Source of the DNA: Nitrospirota bacterium
GTDB taxonomy: Bacteria; Nitrospirota; Thermodesulfovibrionia; Thermodesulfovibrionales; JdFR-85
NCBI GenBank assembly: GCA_035873375.1
Contig: JAYWMQ010000043.1
Span: 67,757-131,756 of the forward strand
DNA length: 64,000 nucleotides
Reading direction: 5' to 3'
The translations under genes and the position numbers were made by a program. Position 1 is the first letter of the stretch. Every line of letters starts with the position of its first letter. The notes under the pieces were generated by a model. That model ran no database searches. It saw only the letters and a list, made by a program, of their open reading frames with translations, and had not been told where the DNA came from. Below, piece by piece: positions 39,193 to 49,351 of this stretch.

Positions 39193-39284
39193 ATCCTGAC
39201 GGGATGCACTGCACTGTACATGATAAGACAATCTGAATACGAACGACAGGGTGGTCAGACTTGACTATCGGTCCTGATGTGATC

Positions 39285-39342
39285 AAGGTGTGCAACTTTA
39301 TTTTCCTGCATGTCAATAGTTTTGCATAGTATGCAACAACGT
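39285..39342 (-). repeat. Copy E3 of an island-specific repeat (core GTTGTTGCA-N5-TGCAAAA...TTGAC)
   Basis: The reverse complement reads cgttgttgcatactatgcaaaactattgacatgcaggaaaataaagttgca, about 80% identical to the + copies at 42066 and 43031. Confidence 0.7.
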
Positions 39343-39466
39343 TTCCGAAGCTTCAAGAAAAATCTATTGTCTCCGCCTGCCTGTTGACTTTTATGGTTTG
39401 ACGTTTTTTTATGGTGATTTTGGTATTATACAGAAAACTGTATACTAACTGGTTATCCAAAAAAAT

Positions 39467-40312
39467 ATGGCGTTATTTGCACTTGATCATAATGGAGATA
39501 GAATTCGAGCCTCTCAAGTAGAAAATAGGAATCTCAACTTTTCGTGTGAAGATTGTGGGAATCCCTTAAGCTTTGTAGATGCTCAATTAAAAGTCAAACA
39601 TTTCAGACATCAGGTGGCTTCTGATTGTGGTGATGAGCCAGAGACCGAAGAACATGAATATTATAAAGATTTAGTTGCTATAAAATTGGAAGAACTAAAA
39701 TTAGGACAAGTATGTCCGGAGTATCTTTTAGGATGCAAACGTGCTGACATATATTTGAAACGCGAAAATAAGCGTGATATAGCTTTTGAAGTACAGGCAA
39801 CAAATTATAGCTTTGCAAAATATGAACAAAAGATTAATTGCTATTCCGCTAGAAGACTTTTAACTGTTTATATATTTATCGGGGATGACTTCTTAAATGA
39901 AGTAAAAAAGAATATCTTCTCATTAAAAGAAATAGAAAAAAAGATATTTCACAACAAGTCATACCGTGATTCTGTTATTGGGTGTTACCTTGATGGAGAG
40001 AATGTAACTCTCCCATCATTTAAACAAAAACATGCAAAAGGAAGCTCTGGATATTGCAGTGATCGATTTATTTTTGACTATAAGAATTTAAAGAAGATGA
40101 CTCTTGATGATTATCTTATTAACGTGCAGGAACATAAGGTTAAAGATGAACATCCATATATATGCGGACATCCAGAATATATAGTTAAAAAATCTGACAA
40201 GAAAATTGAACGATACGGTTGGTTTTGTTCGTGTTGTGGAAAATTCGACAAGTGGCTTTCTAATAAGCAGGCATTATCAATGGGACTTAAATTTAACACA
40301 ATCAATGGCTAA
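39467..40312 (+). CDS. CoiA-like nuclease-fold protein (zinc ribbon plus PD-(D/E)xK-like core)
   Basis: 281 aa. FSCEDCGNPL...KHFRHQVASDCG (CxxC...HFxH...C), EEHEYYK, KRADIYL, AFEVQAT. This is the same motif order as competence protein CoiA. An extra C-terminal CxxC is present (WFCSCCG). Confidence 0.55.
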   Translation: MALFALDHNGDRIRASQVENRNLNFSCEDCGNPLSFVDAQLKVKHFRHQVASDCGDEPETEEHEYYKDLVAIKLEELKLGQVCPEYLLGCKRADIYLKRENKRDIAFEVQATNYSFAKYEQKINCYSARRLLTVYIFIGDDFLNEVKKNIFSLKEIEKKIFHNKSYRDSVIGCYLDGENVTLPSFKQKHAKGSSGYCSDRFIFDYKNLKKMTLDDYLINVQEHKVKDEHPYICGHPEYIVKKSDKKIERYGWFCSCCGKFDKWLSNKQALSMGLKFNTING

Positions 40313-40439
40313 CAACAAAGTGGACTTGAACGAGTACCACAGGACGTTTTTTTAGATAGCTATATTTTAAGACATGCAAATCAGTTTTAGGCATGTTAAT
40401 AAGATTCAGTGGTACTCGTCAGTCACTCAGGCGTTATAC
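40307..40439 (+). repeat. attC-like imperfect palindrome, site 1 (133 bp)
   Basis: The left end GGCTAAC contains the TAA stop and the right end is GTTATAC. Arm agtgGactTgaAcgagtaccac pairs with gtggtactcgtcagtcact, with the unpaired bases on the left arm. The centre is unrelated to site 7 while the ends are conserved. Confidence 0.55.
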
Positions 40440-40450
40440 GCATAAAAAAC

Positions 40451-40972
40451 ATGTGCAACCAACATAGATTAATCACAAATTTAGAAAGAACAGAAATTTC
40501 AGATGCATATTTCGCAATCTTTGGACGGGCACTTACTATTGCCACACGCTTTGATACAGGATGTCGTACCTTGGGAATACTGGTTGGGATAAAGAACGCC
40601 CCTGAGATTCTTGAATCGGAAAAGGTTCTAAAAAAATTTGCTAATAGAATCACCAAGCAAAAATTATGGGATCACATTAACAATTTAACAACAAAGGGTG
40701 CAGAGCCTTGGGATACTCTAAACAAAGCACGAATAGCCAGAAATGAAGTTGCACATGAGATTACACTTGGAATAGATGGACAAATAGACGCTATAACAGA
40801 GAAAATATTAAAAGAAAGAATTGATCGTCTCTACAATCTTTGCCTCTTATTAGCGGAAGGCGATATCTTGGTTGAGGGACTTGCTTCGGAATTAACCGAT
40901 GAAGAGTTGCCAACTATCGATTTTCTGAAAAAATACCCAGAACGTATCGCTAAATGGGTTACTGAAATATAA
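40451..40972 (+). CDS. Hypothetical protein with a HEPN-like Rx4H motif
   Basis: 174 aa from ATG 40451, 12 nt after the GTTATAC core. The track start GTG 40409 lies inside the palindrome. All-helical, with KARIARNEVAHEITLG (R-x4-H). Confidence 0.4.
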   Translation: MCNQHRLITNLERTEISDAYFAIFGRALTIATRFDTGCRTLGILVGIKNAPEILESEKVLKKFANRITKQKLWDHINNLTTKGAEPWDTLNKARIARNEVAHEITLGIDGQIDAITEKILKERIDRLYNLCLLLAEGDILVEGLASELTDEELPTIDFLKKYPERIAKWVTEI

Positions 40973-40980
40973 AAAAAGAC

Positions 40981-41043
40981 GTATAACCATGCTGCTGCAA
41001 GAAACCGCTGAAACTGTGCGGCCTCTGAGCAGCGCTGTTCGAA
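40981..41043 (+). repeat. attC-like imperfect palindrome, site 2 (63 bp)
   Basis: GTATAAC-catGCTGCTgCAaGAaaCCGC-tgaaactgt-GCGGccTCTGAGCAGCgct-GTTCGAA. There are two unpaired bases on the left arm. The left core is the exact complement of the GTTATAC cores of sites 1 and 3. Confidence 0.6.
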
Positions 41044-41068
41044 TTGCAACGAATTTTTATGAATATTT

Positions 41069-41776
41069 ATGAATATTAGAGATAAAGAAAATAACCTTTT
41101 TGAGAAGTGGATGAAAAAAGAAGGCCGAAAGCCATTTATTAAAGATGGTTCACCGTCACCTGATGAATACTCAAAATCTAAAACAAGAATTCTGTTCATT
41201 CTGAAAGATGCGAATTTTGGTATAAATGACGAAGATAAAGAAATTGGAAACTTCGATGATTCCTCTTACGATCAACGAAAGGATTTGGAGAAAAACCCAC
41301 ATGTCTGGTGGAATAGAGTCAGGAATTGGTGTGCTTTCTTACTTAATCCACGTATAGAGTGGGACGAGGTTAAGAAAAAAGATGTTGCTGAATCTTTGGC
41401 CCCATTTTCGTTCATGCAGTTAAAGAAGAACGCTGGTGGTGGGTCTGTAAATGCGGGGACATTGTGGGATGTTGCCAAAGAGGATAGTCTTGAGATAAAG
41501 GAGCAGATTGCTATTTATCACCCTGATTTTATTGTTTGCTGTGGTGTTGGTGAAATAGTTTATAAAATAATATTTTCCGGTAGATCGCCTTTAAATTATA
41601 CCCCGCATGGTGTGGGATATTGGAAGGTTAATAGGGAGGATGATAGTAATAGGAAATATACTTATGTTATCGACTATTGCCATCCGAGTGCGCGATTTGG
41701 GAAAAAGATTGAAGGTGTTGTTGCTTTTGGATTAGTTAATTCTATTAACCACTTAATAAAAAAACGTTATTTTTAA
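41069..41776 (+). CDS. Hypothetical protein (speculative uracil-DNA-glycosylase-like fold)
   Basis: 235 aa. RILFILKDAN near the N-terminus and DYCHPSARFG near the C-terminus recall the positions of UDG-superfamily motifs A and B. No firm match. Confidence 0.3.
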   Translation: MNIRDKENNLFEKWMKKEGRKPFIKDGSPSPDEYSKSKTRILFILKDANFGINDEDKEIGNFDDSSYDQRKDLEKNPHVWWNRVRNWCAFLLNPRIEWDEVKKKDVAESLAPFSFMQLKKNAGGGSVNAGTLWDVAKEDSLEIKEQIAIYHPDFIVCCGVGEIVYKIIFSGRSPLNYTPHGVGYWKVNREDDSNRKYTYVIDYCHPSARFGKKIEGVVAFGLVNSINHLIKKRYF

Positions 41777-41925
41777 ACGTGCATCTAAATACAGAGAGAT
41801 TATTTGCTGACTAAGTGCATGGTTTTACTGAAGGTTTCCTTACAAGGCAAACGCACTCGGATGGTAAAAAGCACCGCTCGTTTTTCAGCTCTGCTTTTTG
41901 CCTCCGTTGATTTATGGCGTTATAC
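41772..41925 (+). repeat. attC-like imperfect palindrome, site 3 (154 bp)
   Basis: The left end TTTAAAC contains the TAA stop and the right end is GGCGTTATAC, identical to site 1. Outer arms are taaacgtgcatctaaataca / tgatttatggcgtta. Inner stem is ggtaaaaagca / tgctttttgcc. Confidence 0.4.
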
Positions 41926-41938
41926 ATGAAGATATAAA

Positions 41939-42106
41939 ATGAAAAACTTAATCTCTTTTGCCGTATTTGTCATAATTCTAACTTTTACCAGTTACTCTCT
42001 ATCATTTTCTATTACTTCAACTCCCAATGCTTTGTCGGAAACACCAAATAACGCAACTTTGGGGATGTTGTTGCACACTATGCAAAACTATTGACGGGTT
42101 AGAAGA
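41939..42106 (+). CDS. Possible 55-aa signal-peptide ORF (below the ORF-track cutoff)
   Basis: Own translation: MKNLISFAVFVIILTFTSYSLSFSITSTPNALSETPNNATLGMLLHTMQNY. It starts 14 nt after the GTTATAC core and its 3' end runs into repeat E1. Confidence 0.3.
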
Positions 42107-42162
42107 AAATAATGTTGATAAAATTGCAGGATTATATCATGCTAAGACAGCCTGGATTAGAC
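42066..42162 (+). repeat. Copy E1 of the island-specific ~95-nt repeat
   Basis: tgttgttgcacactatgcaaaactattgacgggttagaagaaaataatgttgataaaattgcaggattatatcatgctaagacagcctggattagac. About 85% identical to E2. Confidence 0.8.
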
Positions 42163-42402
42163 CTGAGAAGGGTTTTCAATATCATTACCTGCTCTCCCGG
42201 AACAAGAAACGATATGCAATATCTTTATAAGGATAGACCGTAAGATCGAATCCGAACAAAACAAACTCTCATCCCTTAAATCACTCTTTCAGAACCTCAT
42301 AACATGAAAGGTCAGGTTAAGGTTAAGGACATTAATGCATGATATATGGTAAAATGGTATATATAATCAGCACGTATTATTGTGCATAAATGGAGGATGA
42401 AT

Positions 42403-42609
42403 ATGCGTACGACAATTGATATAAATGAAGACCTCATTAATGAGGTTATGAAAAAGGCTGGAGTAAAGACCAAGAAAGAGGCAATTGTAACGGCCATGAA
42501 GGCTTATCTGAGATTCAAAAAAATTGAGGAACTGAAAGAACTGGTCGGTAATTACGACGCCTTCGATCTGACATTAAGCGACCTGAAGAAGATGCGGGAT
42601 GAAAGATAG
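42403..42609 (+). CDS. vapB: VapB-type (DUF2191-like) antitoxin
   Basis: MRTTIDINEDLINEVMKKAGVKTKKEAIVTAMKAYL. GGAGGA lies 6 nt upstream of ATG 42403, so this start is preferred over the track start at 42382. Confidence 0.8.
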   Translation: MRTTIDINEDLINEVMKKAGVKTKKEAIVTAMKAYLRFKKIEELKELVGNYDAFDLTLSDLKKMRDER

Positions 42610-43006
42610 GGTTCTGATAGATACATCCGCCTGGATAGTCAGTTTCAGGAAATCGGGTAATGAGAAGCTGAAACAGCAAGTTGTGGCTGCCCTGAATTCC
42701 CTGTCAGCGGTAACAACAAATATCATCACCATGGAACTTCTTCAGGGGTGTCGCGATGACATGGAATATAAAAAAATGCGGTCAAGGCTGGAGGCACTTG
42801 AGCTGATGCCTCTTAACGAAGACGTTTGGGAGATGGGTTACAGTGCGGGGTATAGCCTCAGGAAGAAAGGCATTACGGTTCCATCGGTGGATATAATAAT
42901 CGCCTCTCTTGCTAAAGCGCATGACTGCACGCTCCTTCATCACGACAGGCATTTTAAACTGATAGCAAGGCATCTCGATATAAAGACGGTCGACTTTTTG
43001 AGTTAA
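42599..43006 (+). CDS. vapC: PIN-domain toxin VapC
   Basis: 135 aa. VLIDTSAWI (Asp), TMELLQG (Glu), PSVDIIIA, LLHHDRHF. Overlaps vapB by 11 nt. Confidence 0.88.
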   Translation: MKDRVLIDTSAWIVSFRKSGNEKLKQQVVAALNSLSAVTTNIITMELLQGCRDDMEYKKMRSRLEALELMPLNEDVWEMGYSAGYSLRKKGITVPSVDIIIASLAKAHDCTLLHHDRHFKLIARHLDIKTVDFLS

Positions 43007-43030
43007 CAGACAGATTATAGAATGGGTGAC

Positions 43031-43124
43031 ATTGTTGCACACTATGCAAAATTCTTGACGGGCAAGAAAATAAAGTTGATAAAGTTGTAGGATTTATATC
43101 ATGCTATGACAGCCAGGATTAGAC
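43031..43124 (+). repeat. Copy E2 of the island-specific repeat
   Basis: attgttgcacactatgcaaaattcttgacgggcaagaaaataaagttgataaagttgtaggatttatatcatgctatgacagccaggattagac. Confidence 0.8.
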
Positions 43125-43178
43125 GTATCAGGAGCCTCGCACACGTCCAATTGCACGAAGGGAGGAACTCATAAAAAG

Positions 43179-43206
43179 TACAAGTTATGCATTGTATGCA
43201 ACAACG
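43179..43206 (-). repeat. Partial inverted copy E4, forming a ~30-bp inverted repeat with the start of E2
   Basis: gtacaagttatgcattgtatgcaacaacg is the near-complement of 43031-43066. Confidence 0.7.
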
Positions 43207-43284
43207 TTCCTGACTTATATTATAGTCTGTGCCTGGGCTGGCTTAGCACATCGTTAGGCATCTATAAAATCGGGGTTCCATAGA

Positions 43285-44241
43285 TTGAAAATAATATATT
43301 TAGATCAGCTTCATTGGATTGAAATTGCTAAACATATAAATGGTAACCATACGAAAGAAGGAACCGATGAAGCGCTCAATCACATATTAGGGTTAAGTAA
43401 AAAGGATATTGCTATTTTTCCTTTATCAATTTCTCACTATTATGAAACTCTAAAACAATCTGATCCAGGAAGGCGACAACGACTCGCTCAAGTTATGAGG
43501 CAACTTTCCCGTGGGTACACAGTTAGTGCACTAAGGAATATCGTTAATTCTGAAATTGAGTTGGCATTAGTAGCTATGTTCAGTTTAAATCACGAAGTGC
43601 TCCCTGTTTCATACATAGGTAAAGGCTTTGAACATACCTTTGGACGATCTCTAAACATGAGGTTAGAATGGCCAAATCCAGAGAAAGTGCCGGAAGATAT
43701 AAAACAAAAAATAGAAAATGATATTTTTGAAGTTGCGGAAAATGCCTTACTAAGCGGTGTGATAAAGGGTTCATCTGTGGAGCATCTATTTCCTAAAATG
43801 GATTTATCTGCAGATATTAAGTTTTGTGATCACCTTATGACGTGGAAGGGATGTGCTTCATCCGCCACTGAGGAAGAATTGAGTCGGCAAATCTACGCAA
43901 TTACATATCAAGATATATTTGATTCCATTTTTTCAAAAACCGTTGAGCTGGGGATTTCTACAGAACAATTTGTAGGTATTGGAGAAGAAGGGATGAAGAG
44001 GCTTATTGATATGATGCCCACCCGGAAAGTAGATATGTGGTTGAGAGACCAATGGGCCAGAAATGGAGGGTTAATACCCAAAAAATCCGACTTGAATGAT
44101 TGGTGCTATGTGGGGGCTGCAATCCCATATTGTGATTTTGTGGTAACAGAAAACCAAATGGATGATCTGTTATCCAGATCAGCAGAATATAAGTCTAAAG
44201 TTACATCAGAGCTTTCAGACTTGATTGGAAAATATGCCTAA
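43285..44241 (+). CDS. Hypothetical protein
   Basis: 318 aa with a TTG start 26 nt after the GTTAGGC core (43253-43259). The N-terminal IIYLDQLHW and C-terminal YCDFVVTENQ are faintly PIN-like. No firm motif. Confidence 0.55.
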   Translation: MKIIYLDQLHWIEIAKHINGNHTKEGTDEALNHILGLSKKDIAIFPLSISHYYETLKQSDPGRRQRLAQVMRQLSRGYTVSALRNIVNSEIELALVAMFSLNHEVLPVSYIGKGFEHTFGRSLNMRLEWPNPEKVPEDIKQKIENDIFEVAENALLSGVIKGSSVEHLFPKMDLSADIKFCDHLMTWKGCASSATEEELSRQIYAITYQDIFDSIFSKTVELGISTEQFVGIGEEGMKRLIDMMPTRKVDMWLRDQWARNGGLIPKKSDLNDWCYVGAAIPYCDFVVTENQMDDLLSRSAEYKSKVTSELSDLIGKYA

Positions 44242-44280
44242 CAATGCAAATTCAGCCGAGCCAATACCGTGCCGTTAGAA
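44236..44280 (+). repeat. attC-like core pair, site 5 (short, weak stem)
   Basis: GCCTAAC (a perfect RYYYAAC containing the TAA stop), 31 nt, then GTTAGAA. Arm pairing is poor and the length is below that of typical attC sites. Confidence 0.3.
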
Positions 44281-44300
44281 GCAAATAAAACAAAAGAGAC

Positions 44301-44669
44301 ATGATGGATCTGGATAATATAGTTGAAATAAGGGTATTAGGCCCCCAAGGGAAATATTATATAGATTTGGAAAAGGAATTTTCCCTACAATTTGAAGAAC
44401 AAGGGGCATATTTTATGATATCCCGTTTGTTTTCTGCTCCTCCAGAAACAACAGTGATGATTACAATAGGGATAGGAGTAATTACTGGAGTGACAACCCA
44501 TGTTCTGGCTAAGCTAATTGATAAAATATTTGATCTAAAGAAACGAGATGGTCAGGAAAACACGAATGTAACTATCAGCCTCCACATTGGAGACAAATAT
44601 GTGAACTTGCCAAGTGATAAAGAAGAAATGTTGAAAAAAATAAATGAGTATCGGAAGGATCAAGAGTAA
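44301..44669 (+). CDS. Small single-TM membrane protein
   Basis: 122 aa with a central hydrophobic helix TVMITIGIGVITGVTTHVLAKLI. Starts 21 nt after GTTAGAA. Confidence 0.55.
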   Translation: MMDLDNIVEIRVLGPQGKYYIDLEKEFSLQFEEQGAYFMISRLFSAPPETTVMITIGIGVITGVTTHVLAKLIDKIFDLKKRDGQENTNVTISLHIGDKYVNLPSDKEEMLKKINEYRKDQE

Positions 44670-44681
44670 GATGAATAAAGC

Positions 44682-44762
44682 TTCTAACAACAGCTTCAAC
44701 ATGGACGGCAAAAAGCTGTGGTGCGTTCCGTATTTTGCCGATAGTTAAGTTGGACGTTGTGT
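44682..44762 (+). repeat. attC-like imperfect palindrome, site 6
   Basis: Left end TTCTAACAAC...; right ends GTTAAGT (44744) and GTTGTGT (44756). Outer arms are ttctaacaacagcttcaac / gttggacgttgtgtaagaa. Inner stem is cggcaaaa / ttttgccg. Confidence 0.35.
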
Positions 44763-44803
44763 AAGAATAAATTAAGCTTATATAAAATTATGGGGAGAGG
44801 AAA

Positions 44804-46225
44804 ATGGACAAAAAACTAACAAAAATTGTTGGCCTGAAAAAAGATGACTTTGATGAATTTATTTCAAGTGGAGAGCTGAAACTAAGGAAAGCTCGATTAC
44901 TTCCATTTTTCAAGCCTGGGGATGAAATGGCTTTGACATCGGTAATATTATCTTCAATAAGATTGATAAATGAGTTTAGAAAAAAAATATTCTCTGACTG
45001 TAAATTGATGGGTGGCGGTCAGATATACGTTTTCACAGAAGTGTCTTTTCCTCAGTTTCCAGAATATAGAGTAGATGGCCTGTTGCTAATTGTTAAGAGC
45101 GGGATAATTAAAGATGCCGCAATATTTGAGATGAAGAATGGGAACGATATACTCAATAAAGAACAAATCGAGCACTATCAAGAAGTTGCTAAAGCATATT
45201 CAATTCCAAAGCTTGTAACAATTTCAAATCAATTTGTTTCTGAACCAACACAATGTCCTGTAAACATTAAAACTATAAAGAACGTTGATATATTTCATTT
45301 CTCTTGGTCTTATCTTTTAACTATAGCTCATGTGTTGTTATTCAAAAATGACGCTAATATCGAAGATGCGGATCAGGTTGAAATAATGCGTGAAGTTGTG
45401 AACTACTTGGAATATGATAAATCAGGAGTTTTTGGTTTAAACCATATGAAAGCAGGTTGGAGCGAAACCATTGAGAAAATAAATGCTGGTGCCAACCTTA
45501 AAATTAATGATCCTTATGTATGTGATGCTGTTTATAGTTGGCAACAAGAAGAAAAAGATATGGCATTAATTTTAAGCCGGCATCTCGGAGTATTAGTTGA
45601 CTCAGGTGAGACGAAGTATAAAAGTAATTTAAAGGCAAGACTGGAAGATGATAAAAAATCCTTAATCAACAAAAAACAGCTTGTATCTACGCTGCGAGTT
45701 AAGGATGCTGTATCTGATATTAAGATTATGGGTTTGTTAGAAAAAAGAAGTGTTGAGATGTTCGTAAGCCTAAAAGCACCACATGACAAAACATTAAGGG
45801 GACAGTTGGGATGGATCAAACGTCAGATTGAAAATTGTAAGAAAAAGAATGAAGCCATTTTTGAGAAACTCAAAAAAGGAGTATTAATTGAGACCAAAAT
45901 TAAAAACAGTCACAAAGCTGAGCGGATGAGTATTCTAAATTTTGATGAAATGATAGATATCCTTAAAAACAAAGAAATCAAAGAATTTAAAATTGTTCTC
46001 ATAAAAGATTTCGGCAAACAATTTGCATCATCTAAGAAATTTGTTGAGCTAATAGAACACATGCTAATTGATTTTTATAGTGGCATTATTCAGTATCTGT
46101 ATAAGTGGGAGCCTTCAGCACCTAAACTGATTCAGCCAATTGAGGCAGGAGATCCAGCTGTTATTGAGAAGCCAACACGAGAAGTTATTGAAGGTGGTAA
46201 GGAATTAAAAGAAATTAAAACATAA
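44804..46225 (+). CDS. RecB/Cas4-family PD-(D/E)xK nuclease domain fused to a ~300-aa uncharacterised Lys-rich C-terminal region
   Basis: 473 aa. GDEMALTS (Glu), RVDGLLLI (Asp), IFEMKNG (ExK), KEQIEHY (QxxxY), in the canonical RecB-nuclease order. GGAGAGG lies upstream of the ATG. Confidence 0.55.
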   Translation: MDKKLTKIVGLKKDDFDEFISSGELKLRKARLLPFFKPGDEMALTSVILSSIRLINEFRKKIFSDCKLMGGGQIYVFTEVSFPQFPEYRVDGLLLIVKSGIIKDAAIFEMKNGNDILNKEQIEHYQEVAKAYSIPKLVTISNQFVSEPTQCPVNIKTIKNVDIFHFSWSYLLTIAHVLLFKNDANIEDADQVEIMREVVNYLEYDKSGVFGLNHMKAGWSETIEKINAGANLKINDPYVCDAVYSWQQEEKDMALILSRHLGVLVDSGETKYKSNLKARLEDDKKSLINKKQLVSTLRVKDAVSDIKIMGLLEKRSVEMFVSLKAPHDKTLRGQLGWIKRQIENCKKKNEAIFEKLKKGVLIETKIKNSHKAERMSILNFDEMIDILKNKEIKEFKIVLIKDFGKQFASSKKFVELIEHMLIDFYSGIIQYLYKWEPSAPKLIQPIEAGDPAVIEKPTREVIEGGKELKEIKT

Positions 46226-46344
46226 TAATGGAATGGACTTGAACAGGTTATCTCAGCTCCCTTTTTCAAGTCGATCATAGTTCATTTTTTTATTTTTTGT
46301 TACTGTTTTCAAAGAAACGCTTGTCAGTCATTCAGGCGTTAGGC
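46221..46344 (+). repeat. attC-like imperfect palindrome, site 7 (124 bp)
   Basis: Left arm aatgGactTgaAc and right arm gtcagtcatt with GGCGTTAGGC (a perfect GTTRRRY). The ends are homologous to site 1 and the centre is unrelated. Confidence 0.55.
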
Positions 46345-46376
46345 GTATGAATAACCAAATATGAAAGAGGCTGAAA

Positions 46377-46511
46377 ATGGCGTTTAATAACTTAAAGATA
46401 ACATGTGTGAAAGTCGAAGGCAAATGTAGCCGAACAAAAGTGGGAACAACCTTCTACGTAAGAAATGCAAAATTGGAAATCCCTCCAGGGGAAAGCATTT
46501 ATAATGATTGA
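46377..46511 (+). pseudogene. 44-codon fragment resembling the N-terminus of small Cys-containing TIGR04076-type proteins
   Basis: Own translation: MAFNNLKITCVKVEGKCSRTKVGTTFYVRNAKLEIPPGESIYND*. AGAGG RBS present. It stops where full-length relatives continue, and it overlaps the hicB-like start. Confidence 0.3.
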
Positions 46512-46749
46512 GTTAGAATACTCATTAATAATCGAGGCAACAGAAGAACCTGACTATTTTGGGTTTTATTCTCCGGACCTGGAAGGTTTTTCAGGGATAG
46601 GACATTCTATTGAAGATTGTATCTATAAGGCAAAATGGGGAATGAAGGAACATGTTCAGCTGTTAAAAGAACAAGGCTTGCCAGTCCCTCCGCCGAATCC
46701 CAATCCCAGGATAATTATTCAAAACGAAGAGAAGTTAACAGTTGCATAG
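46504..46749 (+). CDS. hicB: HicB-like antitoxin-fold protein (UPF0150), no HicA partner
   Basis: MIELEYSLIIEATEEPDYFGFYSPDLEGFSGIGHSIEDCIYKAKWGMKEHVQLLKEQGLPVPPP. The internal Met at 46504 is preferred over the track start at 46465. Confidence 0.65.
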   Translation: MIELEYSLIIEATEEPDYFGFYSPDLEGFSGIGHSIEDCIYKAKWGMKEHVQLLKEQGLPVPPPNPNPRIIIQNEEKLTVA

Positions 46750-46840
46750 TTTAAAAAGAAAAATGACCGTCCCACATCGATCGAATTCCCCATCGGCTTT
46801 TGTTAAGCGGTGGTTAAACGATAGTTAAACGCAAACTACA

Positions 46841-46879
46841 AAAGGGCATTGGTTTGCTGTAAACGAACCAATGCCCTTT
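46841..46879 (-). terminator. Rho-independent terminator of the NuoG-like operon (14-bp perfect stem)
   Basis: AAAGGGCATTGGTT-tgctgtaaacg-AACCAATGCCCTTT. On the minus strand it is followed by TTTTGT. Lies 28 nt after the stop at 46907. Confidence 0.75.
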
Positions 46880-46906
46880 CGCGATCCTGTTTGATTTTAA
46901 AACCCC

Positions 46907-49351
46907 TTATGTTTTTGGCTCTATTCTTACCGCTGTCAGATGGGCTGAGCCCTCCGGGGACGCAAATGTCAGGGAATTCACCCTTGCGTGGGCAAAGTGT
47001 ACAGGGACAAAGAGCATTCCTTCGGGTATCTCGTCAGATATACGTGCCTTTATATATACCGAGTCCCTCCTTGATACTATCCTGATGAACTCACCGTCCT
47101 CAACGCTGAACTTGTCAGCATCCTCAGGGCTTATCTGCACAAAGGCATCGGAAAGTACATGGCTGAGGCTCTTTGACATGACAGAGAGGGCACCTGAGTG
47201 CTGCATGATATTGCCTGTCACCAGGACAATAGGGTGCTCCTCATCAGGTCTCTCCTTGAGTTCCCACTCAGGGCTGGCGAATCTCCATTTCTGGGTCCCG
47301 GTATCAACGGGCATTTTGCTTATCTCTTCCTGGATGGTTTTAAGGTCTATGCTTCCAAGGTCCTCTCCCATAAGCCTTGCAAGGTTGCGCAGTATCATCC
47401 AGTCAGCTATGGAATCCCCTGTGGCTGCAACCACCTTTGGTACAGGCTGGGGCAGACCCTCCGAGTTTATAAATGTTCCTTCCTTCTCTGCCCAGCTTGC
47501 AGCAGGCAGGATTACATCAGCTAATTTTGCCGTCTCTGAAATCCTTATGTCCTGAACTATCAGGAGGTCAAGGCCTTTGATCGTCTCTTCAATACGGTCT
47601 GCATCAGGCATGGTGACAAGCGGGTCTTCACCCATGAGATAGAGGGCCTTGAGTGCTCCGGGTTTGTAAAGCATTTCATATAAATCCTTGCCATTGCTCA
47701 GCGGTCTTACACCCATGAGCCAGGCACCGTAGGTGTTTGAGTAATCAGCCGGTATCTGTAATGCCTCGGGGCCCTCTCCCAGGAGCATGAGGAGATTGGC
47801 CGCAGCCCTTACGGTCTCGATACCCTTCTGATTCTCTGCTGCTGCAACAGTCATGGCCAGGAGGCGGCTTTCCGCCATGGTAAACTCTCTTGCCATTTCT
47901 GTAAATTCCTCTTCTTTTATGCCTGTTATCTCTGATACCTTTTTTGGGGTAAAGTCCTTTACCGCTTCCTGAAGTTCATCAAGACCCTCTGTTGTAATAT
48001 CCTTCTTCAGGTGAATTCCTCCGGCCAGTGCATAGTTGATCAGGCCGTTAAGGAAGGCGGTCGAGGTTCCGGGTCTTATCCTCAACCACGCTGACGCACG
48101 TCTTGCAAGCTTTGTCTGCCTCGGTTCAACAATCAACAGGCGTGAGCCCTCAAGTTTTGCCTCGAGGAACTTGAGTCCGAAGATGGGGTGAGTGGAGGTG
48201 ATGTCTGATTCAAGGACGAGTATGACCTCCTTGCCTATGGGGGAGTCGAGCTTTACAGGGTTCAGTTTTATCCCGTAAGTCTCTTCCATGCCTTTTAGCA
48301 CCCAGGCATAGCCGAGCCTTGCAGAGGTGTCCAGGTTGTCGGTGCCTATCACCTCACGCATGAATTTCTGGAGCATGTAATTGTCTTCAAGTGTGGTCCT
48401 TGGTGAACCGATTGCCCCTATGGCCTCCGGGCCGTGTTTTTCCTTTATTGTCTTCAGCTTTTCTGCAACGTAATAGAGTGCCTCCTCCCAGGAAGCCTCC
48501 CTGAATTCCCCGTCCGTCTTAATCAGTGGTGTCTTCAGCCGTGACTCACCATAAATGAAGTCAAAGCCGAACCTCCCCTTTCCACAGAGGTCACCGTTAT
48601 TTACACCCTTACCCTCAACCCCTCTGACCCTCAAAATCTTTCCTTCCCTGAGGTCAAGGGTGAGAGTACAGCCGACTCCGCAGTAGGGGCATATACTGTC
48701 TCGGCTTTCAAGGAACCACGCCCTTGCCCGGTACTTGTAAGGCTTTGCCCCAAGGGCGCCAACAGGGCAGGTATCAATGCACTGGCCGCAGAATTCACAG
48801 TCAAGGGTCTCTTCAAATGCAGGGCTTATCTTTGTCTTGAACCCACGGCCAATCAGGTTTATTGCCCCAACGCCCTGGTGTTCCCAGCAGACCCTTACGC
48901 AGCGGCCGCAAAGTATACACCTGTTGGGATTACGGTCAATCAGGGGGCTTGTTGCCTCTGGATCGTGTTTCCTCTCACCATAGAACCGGCTCTGTGAAGG
49001 ACCGTATTTATATGCAAGGTCCTGGAGGCTGCACTCACCGGCCTTGTCGCATATCGGGCAGTCAAGTGGGTGGTGTACGAGCAGGAGTTCGAGTACGGTT
49101 TTTCTTGCCTTTTGCAGCGCCGGGGTGTCGGTGTGCACAACCATTCCGTTTTCAGCAGGGGAGGAGCATGATGCCATCAGCTTTCTCTGTCCCTCAACCT
49201 CTACGAGGCAGAGTCTGCACCCCCCGTAGGGCTTCAGCCTTCTGTCCCAGCATAGATGGGGTATGTATATGTTGTTCTCCCTTGCCACATCCAGTATTGT
49301 CACGCCTTTTTTGGCCTGGAGTTTTTTGCCGTTAATCGTCAGTTCTATCAT
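46907..49351 (-). CDS. NuoG/FdhA-like Fe-S molybdopterin-oxidoreductase-family subunit
   Basis: 814 aa. N-terminal 2Fe-2S ferredoxin fold (CRLCLVEV), His-ligated and 4Fe-4S cluster motifs (HHPLDCPICDKAGEC, CILCGRCVRVC, CGQCIDTCP), MopB and C-terminal molybdopterin-binding barrel. The FDH active-site position reads SARLGY rather than ARV(U/C)H. Confidence 0.85.
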   Translation of the reverse strand: MIELTINGKKLQAKKGVTILDVARENNIYIPHLCWDRRLKPYGGCRLCLVEVEGQRKLMASCSSPAENGMVVHTDTPALQKARKTVLELLLVHHPLDCPICDKAGECSLQDLAYKYGPSQSRFYGERKHDPEATSPLIDRNPNRCILCGRCVRVCWEHQGVGAINLIGRGFKTKISPAFEETLDCEFCGQCIDTCPVGALGAKPYKYRARAWFLESRDSICPYCGVGCTLTLDLREGKILRVRGVEGKGVNNGDLCGKGRFGFDFIYGESRLKTPLIKTDGEFREASWEEALYYVAEKLKTIKEKHGPEAIGAIGSPRTTLEDNYMLQKFMREVIGTDNLDTSARLGYAWVLKGMEETYGIKLNPVKLDSPIGKEVILVLESDITSTHPIFGLKFLEAKLEGSRLLIVEPRQTKLARRASAWLRIRPGTSTAFLNGLINYALAGGIHLKKDITTEGLDELQEAVKDFTPKKVSEITGIKEEEFTEMAREFTMAESRLLAMTVAAAENQKGIETVRAAANLLMLLGEGPEALQIPADYSNTYGAWLMGVRPLSNGKDLYEMLYKPGALKALYLMGEDPLVTMPDADRIEETIKGLDLLIVQDIRISETAKLADVILPAASWAEKEGTFINSEGLPQPVPKVVAATGDSIADWMILRNLARLMGEDLGSIDLKTIQEEISKMPVDTGTQKWRFASPEWELKERPDEEHPIVLVTGNIMQHSGALSVMSKSLSHVLSDAFVQISPEDADKFSVEDGEFIRIVSRRDSVYIKARISDEIPEGMLFVPVHFAHARVNSLTFASPEGSAHLTAVRIEPKT

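Follow-up and report, generated by a model that had tools for sequence, protein, structure and literature searches.

What does a nuclease do that is encoded alone in a mobile gene cassette, among toxin-antitoxin (TA) modules? This question is raised by a stretch of 64,000 nucleotides from a Nitrospirota bacterium (contig JAYWMQ010000043.1, positions 67,757 to 131,756; the whole stretch is called the window below), in which a complete open reading frame (ORF) with an ATG start lies at positions 44804-46225 on the + strand as the sole gene of its cassette. It encodes a protein of 473 residues and is present in a single copy in its own genome. A first-pass annotation of the same DNA had placed the ORF at exactly this position, which was confirmed, and had proposed a RecB-family nuclease fused to a domain of no recognisable kind, possibly a defence effector. 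The present analysis establishes the protein as a member of a large unnamed, horizontally mobile protein family. With a probability of about 0.5 it is a putative single-protein nuclease directed against phages or mobile elements, in which the nuclease is controlled by the C-terminal part; the defence role is suggested by the genomic context.

A large protein family with a fixed two-part architecture

A word-indexed search with the 473-residue protein returned more than 741 homologues, and an exhaustive phmmer search yielded 976 clusters at 50% identity with E < 1e-3, 228 of them with E < 1e-30. The alignments of nearly all phmmer hits span residues ~28-445. Thus the nuclease and the C-terminal part always occur together, and the protein is a conserved two-part protein of ~450 residues rather than an ad hoc fusion. 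The first-pass annotation had described the nuclease as "fused to" a second domain, a framing that gives way to a single conserved architecture in ~1000 clusters at 50% identity. An alignment of 44 diverse family members, reaching down to 25% identity, contains 13 invariant columns: L32, P34, E41, E79, D91, G92, E109, K111, Q121, Y125, H165, S167, and W219. Identity to the most distant members is 35% in the nuclease region, 31% in the helical region that follows it, 25% in the C-terminal domain, and 9% in the tail.

Searches of Pfam, PADLOC (run as the first-pass annotation had suggested), NCBIfam, and the Protein Data Bank (PDB) sequences gave no match to the 473-residue protein, and the 44 members had no significant match in Pfam, NCBIfam, or PADLOC. 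A single PADLOC match of one family member to SAVED (E = 0.006) was treated as noise. Sequence and profile searches of the PDB, applying both the window protein and the family profile as queries, returned only noise in the form of a hemolysin and the proteasome activator PA28. Some stand-alone homologues (P0035, P0038, and P0044) carry an extra C-terminal zinc-ribbon-like tail of the pattern CPxC...CPHC that is not present in the window protein.

The N-terminal domain as a probable PD-(D/E)xK nuclease

The nuclease core comprises residues 28-180 (positions 44885-45343, + strand) according to the AlphaFold model and the alignments. The first-pass annotation had assigned the N-terminal ~130 residues to a nuclease; a PD-(D/E)xK core was indeed found, but the fold runs further, to about residue 180. 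In the full-length AlphaFold model, with a mean predicted local distance difference test score (pLDDT) of 85 and a predicted template modelling score (pTM) of 0.81, residues 41-179 adopt the topology alpha-beta-beta-beta-alpha-beta, the order of PD-(D/E)xK nucleases. The elements are a helix (41-66), three strands (73-81, 89-98, and 101-110), a helix (119-131), and two further strands (136-141 and 162-167). The series of E, D, ExK, and QxxxY motifs, which had been read correctly from the outset, consists of E41 in GDEMALTS, D91 in RVDGLL, E109-x-K111 in FEMKNG, and Q121-xxx-Y125 in QIEHY. All six residues are invariant in 29 homologues as well as in the 44-sequence alignment, and as they make up six of only 13 invariant columns, their conservation is far beyond chance expectation. 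In the model, the first helix contains E41, the beginning of strand 2 D91, strand 3 the ExK motif, and the next helix QxxxY. E79, H165, and S167 are further invariant residues of the nuclease region.

A Foldseek search with the full model against the PDB and viral libraries gave no match with E < 1e-3. The partial matches of highest probability for the N-terminal domain are PD-(D/E)xK nucleases, namely Can2 (probability 0.84), EcoT38I, BamHI, VC1899, and an Mrr-like protein, with E-values of at least 0.08. A second group among the higher-probability partial matches of the full model consists of YbjN and type III secretion chaperones. The structural check that had been recommended in the first-pass annotation recovered the core topology in the AlphaFold model, but no significant Foldseek match for either half of the protein.

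Among the 44 members scanned, sub-threshold hidden Markov model matches were obtained to VRR_NUC in nine, to PDDEXK_4 in four, and to Mrr_cat in one; the window protein itself has no match to VRR_NUC (PF08774). The VRR_NUC matches span the D...ExK...Q stretch, at profile positions ~46-115 of 116, and are co-linear with the catalytic core. Their scores are 12-18 bits (best 18.4), compared with a Pfam cut-off of 23.8. Alignment of the N-terminal domain by hhalign to a VRR_NUC profile of only four sequences, which makes this a weak test, gave a pairwise E-value of 5.7e-4 and a probability of 29%, with PD paired to D91, ExK to ExK, and Q to Q121. The VRR-NUC nucleases, which include FAN1-type enzymes and stand-alone forms of phages and bacteria, thus resemble the window family in the PD-(D/E)xK core, in the motif order PD...ExK...Q-x-x-(W/Y), and in the exact alignment of the catalytic residues. 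What sets the window family apart is that its scores are below the cut-off and that it has an additional conserved helix at the N-terminus, which carries E41, an SNQ/HxSW extension, and another ~260 residues not present in VRR-NUC proteins.

The RecB/Cas4 label of the first-pass annotation had to be abandoned. Although the window protein has the D, ExK, and QxxxY motif series of the RecB/AddB/Cas4-type nucleases, hmmscan found no match to PDDEXK_1 or Cas_Cas4, and hhalign against a 30-sequence AddB/RecB-type PDDEXK_1 profile gave a probability of 0.2%. A quartet of cysteine residues for an Fe-S cluster, as in Cas4 and AddB, is not conserved in the alignments; the sole conserved cysteine is C345, which is found in closer homologues only.

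The N-terminal domain is accordingly very probably a PD-(D/E)xK nuclease of its own family, nearest to VRR-NUC. That the motifs are coincidental, the domain being a PD-(D/E)xK-like scaffold that serves some other purpose, for instance binding alone, would agree with the lack of any significant nuclease family in profile or structure searches. Such a coincidence is highly improbable, as the full D...ExK...QxxxY set together with E41 is invariant in two different architectures (stand-alone and fused to TerD, see below) over very deep divergence, the motif residues lie on the expected secondary-structure elements, and inactive PD-(D/E)xK domains typically lose such residues.

The C-terminal region

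Residues 181-262 (positions 45344-45589, + strand) form a helical region with helices at 189-203, 217-227, and 237-261, as judged from the AlphaFold model and the alignment. W219 is invariant in this region, and D188, Q191, E197, and W246 are nearly so. It is followed by an alpha/beta domain of residues 263-441 (positions 45590-46126, + strand), whose extent in the full-length model is 265-427 and in which P326, W337, Y425, and P440 are conserved, and by a disordered, acidic and basic tail of residues 442-473 (positions 46127-46222, + strand) that is little conserved and has pLDDT values below 50. The first-pass annotation had called the C-terminal part rich in lysine and partly coiled-coil. 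The lysine content is high (17.9% in residues 263-441), but in place of a coiled coil AlphaFold predicts the globular helical region and the alpha/beta domain.

A separate AlphaFold model of residues 186-445 reached a pLDDT of 93 and a pTM of 0.86. When this model was compared with the PDB by Foldseek, no match with E < 1e-3 was found. The best match of the C-terminal domain is YbjN (E = 0.035, TM-score 0.44), followed by ExsC, SycN-YscB, and SchA at TM-scores of 0.40-0.45. This fold of YbjN (6vu7) and the type III secretion chaperones is the sole consistent structural resemblance of the alpha/beta domain. Yet with E-values of at least 0.035, TM-scores of ~0.40-0.45, 6-8% identity, and extra elements in the C-terminal domain, it falls short of what a confident fold assignment requires. 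No significant relative of the C-terminal ~260 residues exists at the level of Pfam and the PDB, and the earlier statement that the remaining ~300 residues match nothing held against Pfam, PADLOC, NCBIfam, PDB sequences, and Foldseek.

Could the C-terminal domain be a reader of modified DNA? In that case the protein would be a modification-dependent, type IV-like restriction endonuclease that recognises a modified base or glucosylated DNA and hence needs no methyltransferase partner. The gene is solitary, with no methylase or other partner, it is mobile and at times found in defence islands, and the PD-(D/E)xK core has a complete active site, all of which this explanation would accommodate. 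However, neither mREase_IV nor the other type IV models matched, and the comparison of the C-terminal domain with the PDB by Foldseek detected no reader of the PUA, SRA, or EVE type, no SAVED fold, and no DNA-binding fold. A fusion to TerD, as described in the following, would also be unexpected for a reader of DNA modification. A type IV-like enzyme is therefore considered improbable.

A TerD-fused branch in Actinobacteria

Six megaplasmids of Rhodococcus and Streptomyces contain full-length matches to the window protein (22-24% identity) inside genes annotated as "TerD family protein". In a protein of 715 residues from the Rhodococcus plasmid pR8L1 (L123:6176-8320), a genuine TerD domain occupies residues 7-175 (E = 2e-30 against PDB 3ibz), and the complete nuclease module residues 290-704 (hhalign probability 100%, E = 5.9e-50). 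More than 1000 such TerD-fused proteins occur in Nocardia, Rhodococcus, Prescottella, and their relatives. In public records their sole annotation is "TerD family protein" or "stress response protein SCP2", and the module of ~430 residues is unannotated.

The conserved residues of the stand-alone family recur in the fused form. In 120 TerD-fused proteins E41, E79, E109, K111, Q121, Y125, S141, N142, H165, S167, W168, W219, W246, P326, W337, Y425, and P440 are essentially invariant; E41, E79, E109, K111, Q121, and Y125 are each kept in at least 119 of the 120, with E109 and K111 present in all. D91 aligns aspartate to aspartate in hhalign, and its MAFFT column in the 120-protein alignment is off by one residue. 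In three actinobacterial genomes the TerD-fused genes are solitary, occupy differing chromosomal sites, and have no conserved neighbour, while the plasmid-borne ones adjoin a RES-Xre pair or a MazG/dTMP-kinase/radical-SAM cluster.

TerD has been described as a ligand-binding domain that may sense a signal in the Ter conflict and stress system (PMC7824862), and the Ter clusters are characterised as a chemical-stress and antiviral system in a passage of PMC4633105 that quotes Anantharaman et al. 2012. A sensor domain placed ahead of the module fits with the module being an effector. The likeness to Ter systems lies in the whole module standing behind a genuine TerD domain in Actinobacteria. The difference is that the fusion proteins are solitary and outside ter operons, and that the window protein lacks TerD: Pfam detects no such domain in it, and there are no ter genes nearby.

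An integron-type cassette in a low-GC island

The nuclease gene lies in an island of co-oriented cassettes at positions 39193-46840 (+ strand), which resembles an attC-site cluster that has no integron integrase (CALIN). The GC content is 33-41% over these 8 kb and 44-53% in the flanks, and the island genes are all on the + strand, the flanking genes on the - strand. The first-pass annotation had reported attC-like sites on both sides of the gene. The cassette boundaries proved real, but the sites are degenerate: a strict search for the pattern RYYYAAC...GTTRRRY found no attC sites, and no integron integrase was found, as TIGR02249 gave nothing above its cut-off in the genome, which is 99.3% complete, where the only matches were of the Xer type, as in all control genomes. 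As the genome is without an integron integrase, the array is classed as CALIN-like.

The boundaries emerged from a comparison with the copy L130 from another metagenome, which is 86% identical and heads a run of co-oriented small ORFs. The blastn homology between the window and L130 (87.7%) starts exactly at G44756 of the core GTTGTGT and ends at the stop codon at 46225. The L130 copy is then followed by its own element of 125 nt that folds as a canonical attC site, with CATAAC/GTTATG outer pairing and a bulged inner stem. This comparison is decisive for the cassette boundaries predicted here. The upstream attC-like site (positions 44682-44762, + strand) belongs to the preceding cassette, with TTCTAAC at 44682-44688 following the stop codon of that gene and the core GTTGTGT at 44756-44762; its predicted fold is weak (z = -0.3). 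The own attC-like site of the nuclease cassette (positions 46220-46344, + strand) has an inverse core ACATAAT that includes the stop codon and a core GTTAGGC at 46338-46344. The inverse core reads ACATAAT in the window as against ACATAAC in L130, which is consistent with decay of an attC site in an array without integrase.

Further elements of the island follow the same pattern. The attC-like elements at 40309-40445 and 46220-46344 share both ends and an imperfect stem, one arm of which has three unpaired bases, and this element does not recur elsewhere in the genome. A core of the GTTRRRY type is found 20-40 nt 5' of almost every start codon of the island (at 40437, 41918, 43264, 44274, and 46338), and at 40309 and 44684 the stop codons are overlapped by a TAAC-type inverse core. 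In the copies from a WOR-3 and a Marinimicrobia genome (L028 and L040) the 3' flanks are convincingly attC-like, and the stop codon falls within ATATAAC. For the family as a whole there was no enrichment of attC-like flanks, which a home-made attC detector found in 6 of 66 cases and in 30 of 605 controls. As judged from sequence, the nuclease gene is thus carried as an integron-type cassette in the window and, beyond it, in a minority of lineages, and in the window it would reside in a fossil array whose attC sites have partly decayed.

The start codon is preceded at a distance of 3 nt by a Shine-Dalgarno-like GGGGAGAGG at positions 44792-44800 (+ strand), which is also kept in L130. A scan for promoters and terminators around the nuclease gene gave no signal above chance, and the gene is probably transcribed by read-through along the cassette array.

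The other content of the island comprises MNT/HepT, a CoiA-like nuclease, a weak HEPN-like ORF, VapBC, a HicB-like gene, and three unknowns, so that the setting among TA modules described in the first-pass annotation was correct. The mechanically assigned GTG start of the HEPN-like ORF (187 residues) falls inside the attC-like element 40309-40445 (at 40409-40450); its real start is probably an ATG near 40451, after a GTTATAC core. A second repeat family of ~95 nt, distinct from the attC-like elements, is confined to the island (42061-42162, 43025-43124, and, inverted, 39293-39350 and 43183-43213). Its core is the palindrome GTTGCA...TGCAAC, and copies of the repeat flank the vapBC module and lie upstream of the CoiA-like gene.

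The right border of the island is located ~65-90 nt past the stop of a NuoG-like gene, where the homology to same-genus genomes ends. Relatives carry unrelated DNA at this site, in two of them ordinary housekeeping DNA. In an empty-site comparison with same-genus genomes, the two flanking genes were on different contigs, and several assemblies break at the locus. Contigs of three metagenome-assembled genomes (MAGs) of the genus (G001:C17, G003:C59, and G005:C93) terminate at the 3' end of the NuoG-like gene or shortly beyond it, corresponding to window positions ~46817-46907, which suggests a variable locus that breaks assemblies.

Distribution, mobility, and genomic neighbourhoods

When genomes were searched with the family profile, the gene was found in 1 of 61, namely the window's own, the others belonging to its genus (seven), its family (15), and its order (38). 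A match to a housekeeping repair protein of core genomes, named in the first-pass annotation as an outcome that would contradict its proposal, had also been looked for; the absence of the gene from all 60 relatives marks it as accessory and not as a core repair gene. The genomes that do carry the gene span ~16 phylum-level groups, including one Nanohaloarchaeon, and the identity between phyla is often ~60%. The homologues from archaeal MAGs, L074 (Nanohaloarchaea) and P0110 (Heimdallarchaeota), are 43-58% identical to bacterial proteins, reflecting either cross-domain transfer or binning contamination. A tblastn match to the major capsid gene of Tortoise microvirus 81 (MK765634.1, 1165-1521; E = 9e-6, 28.6% identity, 24% coverage, residues 170-281) is probably spurious.

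Does the gene travel with a partner? Clustering of all neighbours at 73 loci revealed no conserved partner gene, in agreement with the single-gene unit proposed at first. The largest neighbour cluster consists of response regulators, at 7 of the 73 loci and in scattered positions. With no adjacent conserved partner and no neighbour family exceeding these 7 loci, a type II TA module was rejected. In four loci of Flavobacteriaceae (L047, L049, L050, and L077, from Allomuricauda, Croceitalea, and Flagellimonas) the gene is found downstream of mfd, on the same strand and at a distance of 51-332 nt; this sole recurrent synteny is likely due to vertical inheritance within that lineage.

The neighbourhoods are of several kinds. 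One defence island, in Marispirochaeta, contains a reverse transcriptase (UG17), SLATT, and Abi_alpha, and another combines M78 and DUF4411 with nucleotide cyclases and WYL. Zorya, a type IV restriction enzyme, and the candidates PDC-S01, PDC-S15, PDC-S31, and PDC-S49 also occur among the nearest neighbours. A small integrative element consists of an integrase, ORFs of 281 and 73 residues, and a primase-polymerase/AAA_25 gene, followed by a 79%-identical copy of the nuclease gene. In this element (L128:3773-10422, and L129) the integrase is a tyrosine integrase, an ORF of 43 residues lies between the primase-polymerase/AAA_25 gene and the nuclease gene, and a staphylococcal-nuclease-like gene faces the latter. 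Elsewhere a mobile-element-like context is formed by SNase, DUF2971, and Rep_O, or the gene is a plain insert between core genes. Its routes of mobility are thus the integron-type cassette, cargo of an integrase/primase-polymerase element, and insertion in defence islands, and the association of the family with known defence genes is moderate.

Some of these contexts bear on an alternative function, that of a structure-specific DNA-processing nuclease, similar to VRR-NUC or Holliday-junction resolvases, acting in stress-induced DNA repair or recombination, or helping its carrier mobile elements to replicate and recombine. VRR-NUC is the nearest sequence signal, and one copy of the gene is located beside RusA, ResIII, and SMC-like genes, others together with a primase-polymerase gene on an element or near Rep_O. 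In addition, the TerD fusion is very common and, in Nocardia and Rhodococcus, chromosomal and beside housekeeping genes, and Ter systems have been linked to stress and "DNA-processing" (PMC4633105). On the other hand, a gene of this function would not be expected to be absent from all 60 relatives and patchy across phyla, to lack a conserved partner or operon, and to be carried in TA-rich cassette arrays and defence islands, and a simple resolvase has no need of ~260 extra conserved residues. A DNA-processing role is on balance unlikely, while being the strongest of the alternatives.

The mobility itself could also be that of a selfish or addictive nuclease without benefit to the host, such as a homing-type endonuclease of the free-standing kind or an array-stabilising toxin. 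The horizontal mobility is extreme, with ~60% identity across phyla, the gene is often a lone insert between housekeeping genes, and in the window its neighbours are TA modules, to which a stabilising effect on cassette arrays is ascribed. Against such a role, no cognate antitoxin or immunity gene is conserved alongside, the gene is not associated with introns or inteins, and its insertion sites vary with no common target sequence seen. Moreover, purifying conservation is strong over 450 residues, the large non-catalytic part included. We consider a selfish nuclease slightly less probable still than a type IV-like enzyme.

Comparison with known defence systems and assessment of a possible defence role

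Single-gene defence cassettes that contain a nuclease fusion have been validated in Vibrio integrons, namely Epona, Divona, and Damona (10.1101/2024.07.02.601686). As in the window, there is one gene per cassette, a nuclease domain is joined to another domain, and the cassettes are located in TA-rich integron or CALIN arrays. In contrast to the window protein, which has no Pfam domain, they carry Mrr_cat, DUF4365, and DUF6602. There is no sequence relationship, and they are phage-tested, whereas the window gene is known from sequence alone.

The joining of a PD-(D/E)xK nuclease to a regulatory or sensor domain in one polypeptide is also a feature of Cap4 and of Shedu (SduA). The first-pass annotation had set the nuclease-first order apart from that of such systems, but this order is not unusual: Cap4, an effector of the cyclic oligonucleotide-based antiphage signalling system (CBASS), has its nuclease domain first, in the same order as the window protein. 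A Cap4-type CBASS effector was nevertheless rejected for the window protein, in which neither DUF4297 nor SAVED was found and which has no CD-NTase or other signal-producing neighbour. The Shedu-like character suggested at first does not extend to membership, as DUF4263 was absent and neither Pfam nor PADLOC gave a match for the 473-residue protein and the 44 members.

How would a stand-alone protein of this kind act in defence? The single gene for the mobile effector would by itself make up an immune or conflict system. At rest, its nuclease may be kept inactive by the C-terminal region; once that region binds a cue from an incoming phage or mobile element, the released nuclease would cut DNA, either that of the invader or, in an abortive mode, any DNA of the cell. 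In the actinobacterial branch, TerD may add an extra ligand-sensing input.

Several observations weigh against a defence role. No structural or profile match establishes the nuclease fold at significant scores (Foldseek E of at least 0.08 for nucleases; VRR_NUC 12-18 bits against 23.8). The sensor role of the C-terminal domain is pure inference, and its resemblance to YbjN and the secretion chaperones is below a fold-level match (TM-score 0.44, E = 0.035). PADLOC recognises neither the nuclease gene nor the 44 members. Strong matches to models of defence or candidate defence genes were obtained for only ~15-20 of 223 nearest neighbours, a raw count with no matched background, and many neighbours of the family are housekeeping genes. 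No homologue was found in phage genomes, and on plasmids only distant ones. Finally, in Nocardia and Rhodococcus the TerD-fused branch is very widely distributed, which is also compatible with a function in the stress response or in DNA processing instead of immunity.

A more far-reaching form of the defence role can be put forward tentatively, and with distinctly less confidence. The window protein would then be the founding member of a new and very widespread family of single-protein immune nucleases, in which the C-terminal part recognises a cue of the phage or mobile element directly and thereby unleashes the VRR-NUC-like nuclease, and the TerD-fused form would be a direct DNA-cleaving effector of the Ter phage-inhibition and stress pathway, which has long been enigmatic.

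Implications

Without a match in Pfam, NCBIfam, PADLOC, or the PDB sequences, the family is invisible to current annotation and defence-finding pipelines. The scale of this annotation gap is ~1000 stand-alone clusters at 50% identity plus more than 1000 TerD-fused proteins. Even as a stress or repair nuclease instead of an immune one, the protein would define a new domain family joined to TerD. As an immune nuclease, it would represent a compact one-gene system with a new regulatory domain and provide an experimental handle on what TerD domains sense. In that case it would also lend weight to the idea that defence genes are stored in environmental integron cassettes far outside Vibrio.

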